Below are positions 7,443 to 7,541 of a DNA stretch of 10,060 nt, one piece after another (the first letter of the stretch is position 1; each line of letters starts with the position of its first letter). The position numbers were made by a program, and so were the translations under genes. The stretch is from IMG/VR virus record IMGVR_UViG_2695420540_000013; one strand, written 5' to 3'. The stretch comes from a virus (lineage: Duplodnaviria; Heunggongvirae; Uroviricota; Caudoviricetes). The notes under the pieces were generated by a model. That model had not been told where the DNA came from and searched no databases. It saw only the letters and a program-made list of their open reading frames with translations.

Positions 7443-7480
7443 GTGTGTTTCATGTTATGAGCGCATGAAACACACGTCAA
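7443..7480 (-). promoter_or_regulatory. Sigma70-like promoter of the replication operon overlapped by a perfect 12-bp inverted-repeat operator
   Basis: On the minus strand: -35 TTGACG (7480..7475), 17-nt spacer, -10 TAACAT (7457..7452). Inverted repeat GTGTGTTTCATG (7443..7454) / CATGAAACACAC (7464..7475) with a 9-bp spacer covers the -10 and spacer. A third related half-site TGAAACACAC lies at 7511..7520, just upstream of the divergent gene's RBS. Confidence 0.55.
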
Positions 7481-7541
7481 GGCTTTTTGTATTTCTTTTT
7501 TTGTGTATACTGAAACACACCGATGATTAGGAGTTTCAGAA

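Follow-up and report, generated by a model that had tools for sequence, protein, structure and literature searches.

The regulatory systems that appear closest to the one described here are the immI regions of phages P22 (Mnt/sar) and P1 (c4-icd); it also resembles the Stl/Rpr switches of Staphylococcus aureus pathogenicity islands (SaPIs) and other Gram-positive phage-inducible chromosomal islands (PICIs). In Mnt, the DNA-reading part is N-terminal and the oligomerization helix is C-terminal. The roles of mnt, arc, and sar in P22 immI have been summarized (PMC11016777), and for the interdependence of c4, icd, and ant in P1/P7, the reference list of PMC8546580 gives Citron & Schuster (1992) and Heinrich et al. 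(1994). The master regulator of characterized Gram-negative PICIs is the activator AlpA, and the founding paper of 2018 called a global repressor unclear (PMC6092414); the gene beside alpA is variable and has no assigned function (2025 preprint, 10.1101/2025.02.11.637232). We analyzed IMG/VR record IMGVR_UViG_2695420540_000013, a stretch of 10,060 nucleotides (here, the window) that its gene content identifies as an Escherichia coli phage satellite of the Gram-negative PICI type. In this satellite, a gene for a 101-amino-acid protein of the YlcI/YnfO family (here, the YlcI-like protein) lies divergent from an operon that begins with an Icd-like open reading frame (ORF) and includes the primase gene. 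We propose that the YlcI-like protein is probably the repressor of that operon.

Like P22 immI, the locus has a small putative repressor gene divergent from the operon it would repress, a putative operator that overlaps the target promoter, a back-to-back arrangement of this promoter and that of the repressor gene, and a candidate short antisense RNA over a ribosome-binding site in the repressed operon. P22 has one 17-bp operator, whereas the window has up to six sites ~22 bp apart. The window also lacks an Arc-like second repressor, its antisense RNA would target the first ORF (icd-like) rather than an antirepressor gene, and its operon encodes satellite replication functions. As in P1/P7 immI, the operon opens with a small ORF of the Icd type whose translation start is the likely target of an inhibitory RNA. 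In P1/P7, however, the same transcript yields c4 by processing, and c4 acts in trans, whereas the candidate RNA here is cis-antisense and comes from the opposite strand; P1 immI also lacks a ribbon-helix-helix (RHH)-operator layer. The SaPI/PICI Stl/Rpr switches share with this locus a satellite repressor divergent from an excision-replication operon and many allelic specificities (PMC6092414). Unlike in those switches, the putative repressor here points away from the integrase gene (int) instead of along with it, belongs to a different protein family, and is variable in its presumed DNA-reading end, the rest of the protein being conserved. Short sites, direct or inverted, and the cooperative binding of RHH dimers that we suppose here recall the plasmid proteins omega and TraM. 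TraM couples an RHH domain to a C-terminal tetramerization domain, to which we liken the YlcI-like layout. Those proteins govern plasmid partition, copy number, or transfer, and omega sites are contiguous heptads rather than sites ~22 bp apart. In its int, alpA, primase, and capsid-related genes and its chromosomal attachment (att) site, the window is like the AlpA-controlled PICIs and capsid-forming PICIs EcCICFT073, EcCIEDL933, and EcCIMP1. No homology of the YlcI-like module to Mnt, Stl, or C4 RNA was found.

An earlier reading of the window, made from the sequence only, had described a perfect 12-bp inverted repeat with a 9-nt gap on the promoter of the replication operon. Both inspection of the sequence and a repeat finder placed this repeat, GTGTGTTTCATG-N9-CATGAAACACAC, at 7443-7475, with arms at 7443-7454 and 7464-7475 and 9 nt between them; at 81% complementarity it can be followed out to 26 nt. 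Searched for with as many as 3 mismatches, the pattern was present once in the window and in none of 200 dinucleotide shuffles. Some perfect 12-bp inverted repeat with a loop of up to 30 nt was present in 22 of 1,000 shuffled windows, and the repeat taken alone is thus only moderately unlikely (p, ~0.02). The sequence-only reading had also placed a third related half-site in front of the regulator gene. This copy, TGAAACACACCGA at 7511-7523, is stronger than had been claimed, being a perfect 13-nt complement of 7440-7452, and the array has up to six sites, not three. The heptad GTGTTTC is found four times within 7392-7518 (~130 bp) and six times in the window, where 1.6 copies are expected. 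The promoters, the sites (lettered A to F), and the putative repressor gene are as follows.

7452-7480, minus strand: P_left, from a promoter scan, with -35 TTGACG at 7480-7475, a 17-bp spacer, and -10 TAACAT at 7457-7452; predicted start ~7445.
7506-7511, plus strand: -10 TATACT of P_right, preceded by TGTG and lacking a good -35; predicted start ~7518.
7423-7430, plus strand: site E, one-mismatch copy GTATTTCA, at about +17 to +24 of the P_left transcript, overlapping the U-rich tail of the terminator of the candidate antisense RNA.
7443-7454, plus strand: site A, the left arm, with core GTGTTTCA at 7445-7452, over the -10 and start site of P_left.
7464-7475, minus strand: site B, the right arm, with its core at 7466-7473, filling the P_left spacer and abutting the -35.
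7489-7496, plus strand: site D, degenerate copy GTATTTCT, where a -35 of P_right would sit; D and C bracket P_right.
7511-7523, minus strand: site C, the perfect 13-nt copy, with its core at 7511-7518, directly downstream of the P_right -10 and over the predicted start of the ylcI-like transcript.
7531-7538, plus strand: site F, one-mismatch copy GAGTTTCA, over the ylcI-like Shine-Dalgarno (SD) region; the weakest call.
7542-7847, plus strand: putative repressor gene, 101 amino acids, of the uncharacterized YlcI/YnfO family (NCBIfam NF041551).

The copies overlap core elements of both the target promoter (A and B) and the regulator's own promoter (D and C), as operators of a repressor do. The arms lie over the -10 and spacer of TTGACG-17-TAACAT exactly as had been read. 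P_left matches the consensus at 9 of 12 positions, and the scan gave 3 promoter-like sites in 2.1 kb where 4.2 are expected. Since the score alone is not above chance, the case for P_left is made by the conservation of its position across loci. Transcription starts had been anticipated near 7445 and 7530; the former agrees with the predicted P_left start, whereas the rightward start is likelier to be ~7518, given the -10 at 7506-7511.

We surveyed 173 loci encoding relatives of the YlcI-like protein, taken from IMG/VR, metagenomes, and contigs representing one genome per species. Between them, these loci, from at least 9 genera, have 70 different pairings of regulatory region with protein N terminus, and we defined specificity classes by residues 12 to 17 of the protein. 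Promoter and site positions are kept across Escherichia, Xenorhabdus, Photorhabdus, Serratia, Enterobacter, Erwinia, Pantoea, and Phytobacter. P_left has at least 8 of 12 consensus matches, with 16- to 18-bp spacing, in 59 of 64 unique variants; its -35 is TTGAC(N), TTGCAA, or TTGAAA, its -10 is TAAnnT, and the spacer sequence is class specific. In LFTVRV and in the six classes with the best sampling, a P_right -10 (TATACT, TATAAT, TATAGT, TATATT, TAATGT, or TACACT) stands at -36/-35 relative to the ATG; no such hexamer was found at that position in the rarer classes LKNIRI, VKNVRI, IKNVRV, and QINARV. Class-specific cores lie at about -115, -93, -72, -48, -27, and -6 from the ATG, forming a phased array of up to six sites that in several classes are spaced 20 to 24 bp (~22 bp) apart. 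Equivalents of site E are present at about -115 to -120 in the MTTIRV, MKNIRF, and QINARF classes, and the position of site D (-48) holds a class-specific site in the QISIRI, QLNARF, LFTVRV, SLTARI, and QINARF/V classes. For site F, class-specific matches occur at -5 to -7 in the MTTIRV and QINARF classes, with ~0.1 hit per region expected by chance.

There are at least nine specificity classes. Each class has a repeated motif of its own, and between classes all copies change in concert. The correspondence between class and motif is nearly one to one, and further classes exist beyond the eight given here.

LTTVRV (the window): GTGTTTCA
MTTIRV: GTGATATAC
SLTARI: GTGTAAG
QISIRI: GTGATTCA
QLNARF: GGTATTCAC
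IKNVRV: GTGTGCAT
L/VKNxRI: GTGTGTATTT
QINARF: GGGATTCA

In the window's own class, the arms of the repeat are kept from Escherichia to Xenorhabdus, Photorhabdus, and Serratia, and the sequence between them drifts. The two P_left sites are direct rather than inverted repeats in the MTTIRV, L/VKNxRI, and IKNVRV classes. In this respect the sequence-only reading, with its inverted repeat, is to be amended.

The operator class follows only residues ~1 to 25 of the YlcI-like protein. Residues 53 to 95, in the C-terminal half, are identical or nearly so across E. coli classes, and residues 26 to 52 were seen unchanged among class representatives only. Three unrelated Icd N termini are freely combined with operator classes, and variants of AlpA, Icd, orfX, orf106, the DUF4222 protein, and the primase N terminus do not cosegregate with operator class. 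An AlpA that is 100% identical occurs with three operator classes (LTTVRV, SLTARI, and MKNIRF), and in one of the satellites (L176; NZ_CP148328.1, 1-10790) AlpA is identical to the window type, yet the operators are of the SLTARI type. By these comparisons, the coinherited unit is the operators plus codons 1 to 25. This is as expected if the sites are read by the N terminus of the YlcI-like protein, and it speaks against their being AlpA sites or replication iterons. Specificity located in an N-terminal arm or strand, together with repeated short sites, is the pattern of RHH-type regulators, and the co-variation suggests it here.

The YlcI-like protein matched NCBIfam NF041551 (YlcI_YnfO_N) over residues 9 to 50 with 63.2 bits (cutoff, 30), which places it in that family, and it matched PHROG 6522, whose function is unassigned. 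Its homologues form 216 clusters in Enterobacterales. In a tblastn/blastn search of 50,697 phage records, neither the protein nor the regulatory DNA had a relative, and there is hence no clue to a helper-encoded look-alike. AlphaFold2 (AF2), run with an alignment, gave a monomer model (predicted local distance difference test score [pLDDT], 76; 80 to 87 in the N-terminal part) with an extended stretch at ~7 to 18 and helices at 19 to 28, 35 to 53, and 59 to 98; the sheet of an RHH protein would form only in a dimer. The single-sequence model was poor (pLDDT, 61). The layout is strand-helix-helix over residues ~9 to 53, followed by a long C-terminal helix (59 to 98), and the strand has the pattern K-S-Q-x-x-x-x-R-x-P. 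Strand pattern and modeled secondary structure fit an RHH domain followed by an oligomerization helix, and an RHH fold is likely but unproven. Residues 60 to 86 carry an invariant motif, SSLDAL..VE.IG.KAAEEI, that marginally matched the helix-hairpin-helix of Hef (1x2i; E value, 0.0044); AF2 has one continuous helix there instead. A related island at the same chromosomal site, between clpS and cspD (L175; 10098-10151, 10202-10381), encodes a short YlcI/YnfO protein of 59 amino acids that lacks the C-terminal helix, and three palindromic GGTGTTGAACACC sites surround the same -35. Long and short forms may differ in dimer cooperation.

We conclude, with a probability of about two-thirds, that the YlcI-like protein is a sequence-specific RHH-type repressor of the P_left operon that acts through sites of ~8 to 12 bp. 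The repressor-controlled divergent switch that had been read from the window is supported by the conserved promoters and sites and by the co-variation of the sites with residues ~1 to 25. Several points weigh against this conclusion. The regulator had been called RHH-like, and although the fold is plausible, sequence and fold searches did not show RHH: Pfam RHH-type matches were below threshold (the best, PF07704, at 0.0011, in 16 of 22 members), hidden Markov model searches against PDB sequences gave no RHH protein, and Foldseek returned no significant match to known RHH proteins. A comparison with Mnt by hhalign aligned only 14 columns at a probability of 1% and detected no homology, although the register was the expected one (LTTVRVPLDV/HFNFRMPMEV). 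The LTTVRV and MTTIRV classes share polar strand residues, yet their operators differ, so specificity must depend also on position 12 or on the N-terminal arm; a simple code from β-strand residues to operator was rejected on this pair. Since the operators adjoin the 5′ end of the gene, some function-free coinheritance is expected, although the concerted change of 3 to 6 separated copies argues against mere coinheritance by adjacency. Finally, induction of characterized Gram-negative PICIs has been explained by the activator AlpA, without a repressor (PMC6092414).

The operon does contain the primase gene, as had been claimed, but it is led by the Icd-like ORF under a conserved candidate antisense RNA, which the sequence-only reading had missed.

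7329-7430 including the promoter, plus strand: candidate cis-antisense RNA of ~80 nt, with a start at ~7344, stem-loop 1 (SL1) at 7344-7379, terminator-like stem-loop 2 (SL2) at 7380-7415, and a U-rich tail to ~7430.

The candidate has an extended -10, TGgTATGAT, at 7329-7337 and is complementary to the icd-like SD sequence (7350-7353) and start codon. The plus strand of 7344-7430 folds into two stem-loops at -37.1 kcal/mol (z score, -5.1), compared with a z score of -1.55 for the minus-strand leader. The SL2 hairpin (paired over 7381-7414), between P_left and the icd-like start codon, has compensatory changes at 7 of 12 pairs (27 variants), which none of 500 shuffles equaled. Non-Watson-Crick cells comprise 26 A.C on the operon strand (G.U on the plus strand), versus 2 G.U on the operon strand, and RNAalifold retained both stems on plus-strand sequences, with many G.U pairs. 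A -10-like TAnnnT hexamer is located 36 to 39 nt upstream of a conserved GGTTAGA in 62 of 63 unique variants, across unrelated icd N termini; the icd codons opposite it encode varied residues (N/Q/K, then H/S/Y, then T/I/N). About half of the variants have a TGn extension. A conserved -35 was sought across the variants, and none was found. These features point to a cis-antisense RNA at 7344-7430 that covers the icd-like SD and AUG, and we propose that its promoter converges with P_left at a distance of ~100 bp. Rfam gave no C4/isrK-type match, with no relevant hit at the gathering threshold in the window or at an E value of ≤10 in 7000-8900. The loop of the terminator hairpin contains a further TGTGTTTC copy (7391-7398), which may be coincidental, as hairpins of other than the window type lack it.

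From the anatomy of the locus and its co-variation, we infer how the protein would bind, fold, oligomerize, and regulate. Dimers would recognize GTGTTTCA-type sites through the N-terminal arm and strand (residues ~1 to 25), and the conserved C-terminal helix probably joins dimers for cooperative binding to sites about two helical turns apart. Occupancy of A and B, covering the -10, the spacer, and the edge of the -35 of P_left, would switch off the icd-like/orf106/DUF4222/primase operon. Sites D and C, and perhaps F, around the protein's own weak promoter, would serve autoregulation; with the two promoters placed back to back, the first effect of shutting the strong P_left may be to favor P_right, as in the case of P22 Mnt. 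The antisense RNA would be a second, posttranscriptional lock that probably blocks translation of the icd-like ORF and affects the genes behind it through polarity or coupling. Derepression might come from an antirepressor acting on the invariant C-terminal domain, which is a candidate helper-phage target because it is strongly conserved across all operator classes. It might also come from AlpA-dependent leftward transcription that passes antisense through the repressor gene into the operon; this is speculation. The ylcI-orfX unit ends, just where alpA has its stop codon, in a strong terminator-like hairpin (8146-8165, plus strand) with TTTGTTTTAT behind it. Having no T-run on the minus strand, it looks one-directional, so alpA transcripts could read through it, antisense to the repressor gene. 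The locus had been called the decision point for satellite replication, a role that we also infer for it.

Among other explanations, the one that survives best accepts that the YlcI-like protein binds the sites but has it damp transcription transiently, as Arc or Cro does, or activate its own promoter, with quiescence due mainly to the absence of AlpA and to the antisense RNA. Overexpression of AlpA alone induces EcCICFT073 (PMC6092414), P_right has no -35 and so may be weak in the uninduced state, and the antisense RNA would be an independent lock. Nevertheless, the gene is divergent and apart from its target operon, like mnt or stl and unlike arc or cro; the two best sites sit on P_left; and immunity-like specificity classes are typical of maintenance repressors. 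We consider this explanation unlikely.

It is less probable still that another regulator (AlpA, the Icd-like protein, the orfX product, or a host factor) binds the repeats and that these have nothing to do with the YlcI-like protein. Gram-negative PICIs are known to have AlpA as their master regulator (PMC6092414, PMC11773190), yet identical AlpA proteins accompany LTTVRV, SLTARI, and MKNIRF operators, and orfX and orf106 variants, like those of AlpA and Icd, are shuffled with respect to operator class. PHROGs (phrog_6196 and phrog_1743) label the Icd-like family "transcriptional repressor," where the NCBI label is cell-division inhibitor; since operator changes are not accompanied by changes in Icd, the PHROG label is unlikely to account for the repeats. 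With a host factor, nine or more different motifs at the same positions in one host species could not be explained.

That the phased repeats are replication-origin iterons bound by the primase or a Rep protein is very improbable. There are several direct or inverted copies with ~22-bp spacing in an AT-rich stretch, and PICI origins do consist of iterons (PMC6092414). However, one operator class occurs with different primases; in the H1 island, for example, a regulatory segment of the window type (99.9% identical) adjoins a DUF927 protein instead of the D5-type primase. Within one class, primase N termini can share anything from no identity to 100%, and primases that are 90 to 100% identical are found in four classes. 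Described PICI origins lie after the rep gene, whereas these repeats occupy a promoter ~1 kb ahead of the primase start and do not have the placement of an origin. It is hardly credible that the inverted repeat, for all its perfect 12-bp stem and 9-nt loop, is an RNA or DNA hairpin (a terminator or processing site) instead of a protein site, given that it is upstream of both predicted starts, that the direct-repeat copies of the MTTIRV, L/VKNxRI, and IKNVRV classes cannot pair, and that further copies stand singly.

P_left feeds the icd-like ORF, orf106, the DUF4222 gene, the primase gene, and genes beyond. According to the ORF list, neighbors among the ORFs of this operon (4735-7148 plus the icd-like ORF) abut or overlap. 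The other genes of the window that bear on the switch are as follows.

7141-7344, minus strand: Icd-like ORF, 67 amino acids, the first operon gene from P_left (NCBIfam NF033153, 69.6 bits; RefSeq annotation of an identical segment).
6828-7148, minus strand: orf106, in the operon behind P_left.
6522-6821, minus strand: DUF4222 protein, in the operon behind P_left (Pfam matches).
4735-6540, minus strand: D5-type primase-helicase, in the operon behind P_left (Pfam matches).
Same strand as the primase gene (minus): genes for a single-stranded DNA-binding protein (SSB) and a fusion of ClpP protease and major capsid protein (family matches).
7905-8078, plus strand: orfX, 57 amino acids, basic, function unassigned (phrog_21027), in the ylcI-orfX unit.
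8193-8402, minus strand: alpA (Pfam PF05930, 4.8e-16; RefSeq annotation), of the activator type known from Gram-negative PICIs.
8822-10060, minus strand: tyrosine integrase (ORF list and family matches).

The ylcI-orfX unit is inverted and splits alpA from the replication operon, both of which point the same way. With int, alpA, a primase, an SSB, and a few capsid genes in ~10 kb, a chromosomal att site, and no full set of phage genes, the window has the makeup of Gram-negative PICIs and capsid-gene satellites. Between the SSB gene and a 75-amino-acid ORF, positions 3499-3749 contain two runs of N (157 and 92 bases), and ORFs listed there are artifacts.

Several complete E. coli genomes have a ~10-kb island between clpS and cspD that includes a 99.9%-identical copy of 7100-8600, and RefSeq names the identical 101-amino-acid plus-strand protein in these islands "YlcI/YnfO family protein." This 1.5-kb region, which spans the module, alpA, and part of the icd-like operon, was matched in 1,766 of 5,426 complete E. 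coli genomes and covered to at least 80% in 151; up to six places in a genome match it. A 16.6-kb contig of Xenorhabdus vietnamensis (NZ_MUBJ01000038.1) has the module twice (L009 and L010), both of the GTGTTTCA class, ~4.6 kb apart and in opposite orientation. The two modules on this contig and the multiple matches in E. coli indicate that coresident modules are common. The satellite of NZ_CP148328.1 is a circular 10.79-kb "plasmid" of an E. coli assembly that constitutes a whole member of the family, with int, alpA, and YlcI-like, Icd-like, DUF4222, primase, and ClpP-capsid fusion genes. The circle is presumably the excised, replicating form of the satellite.

The searchable literature on Gram-negative PICIs describes only the AlpA activator (PMC6092414, PMC11773190, PMC10111431, 10.1101/2025.02.11.637232). 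We found no description of a YlcI-type repressor-operator module in the searchable literature, which includes few subscription-journal papers and in which absence is not proof. Tentatively, and with somewhat less than even confidence, we suggest that in many Gram-negative PICI-type satellites the interval between alpA and the replication genes holds a two-layer, immI-like module, in which a YlcI repressor would trade its DNA-reading end and phased operators as one cassette, yielding mutually orthogonal specificity classes, and a cis-antisense RNA with no earlier record would stop translation of the Icd-like leader ORF. Silence of the satellite would then be due to this module and not to the absence of AlpA alone. 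A helper phage, or convergent transcription driven by AlpA, would flip the switch at the invariant C-terminal domain of the repressor, and the module would supply the "missing repressor" of these elements.

The mechanism itself is a textbook one, and the advance is in the assignment and its context, not in the principle. Relatives of the module occur in several Enterobacterales genera besides that of E. coli. If the YlcI-like protein is a repressor, it would give a concrete handle on satellite silence, and its specificity classes would explain how coresident satellites avoid cross talk. The family would yield small orthogonal repressor-operator pairs as genetic parts, and the uncharacterized YlcI/YnfO family would gain a function.
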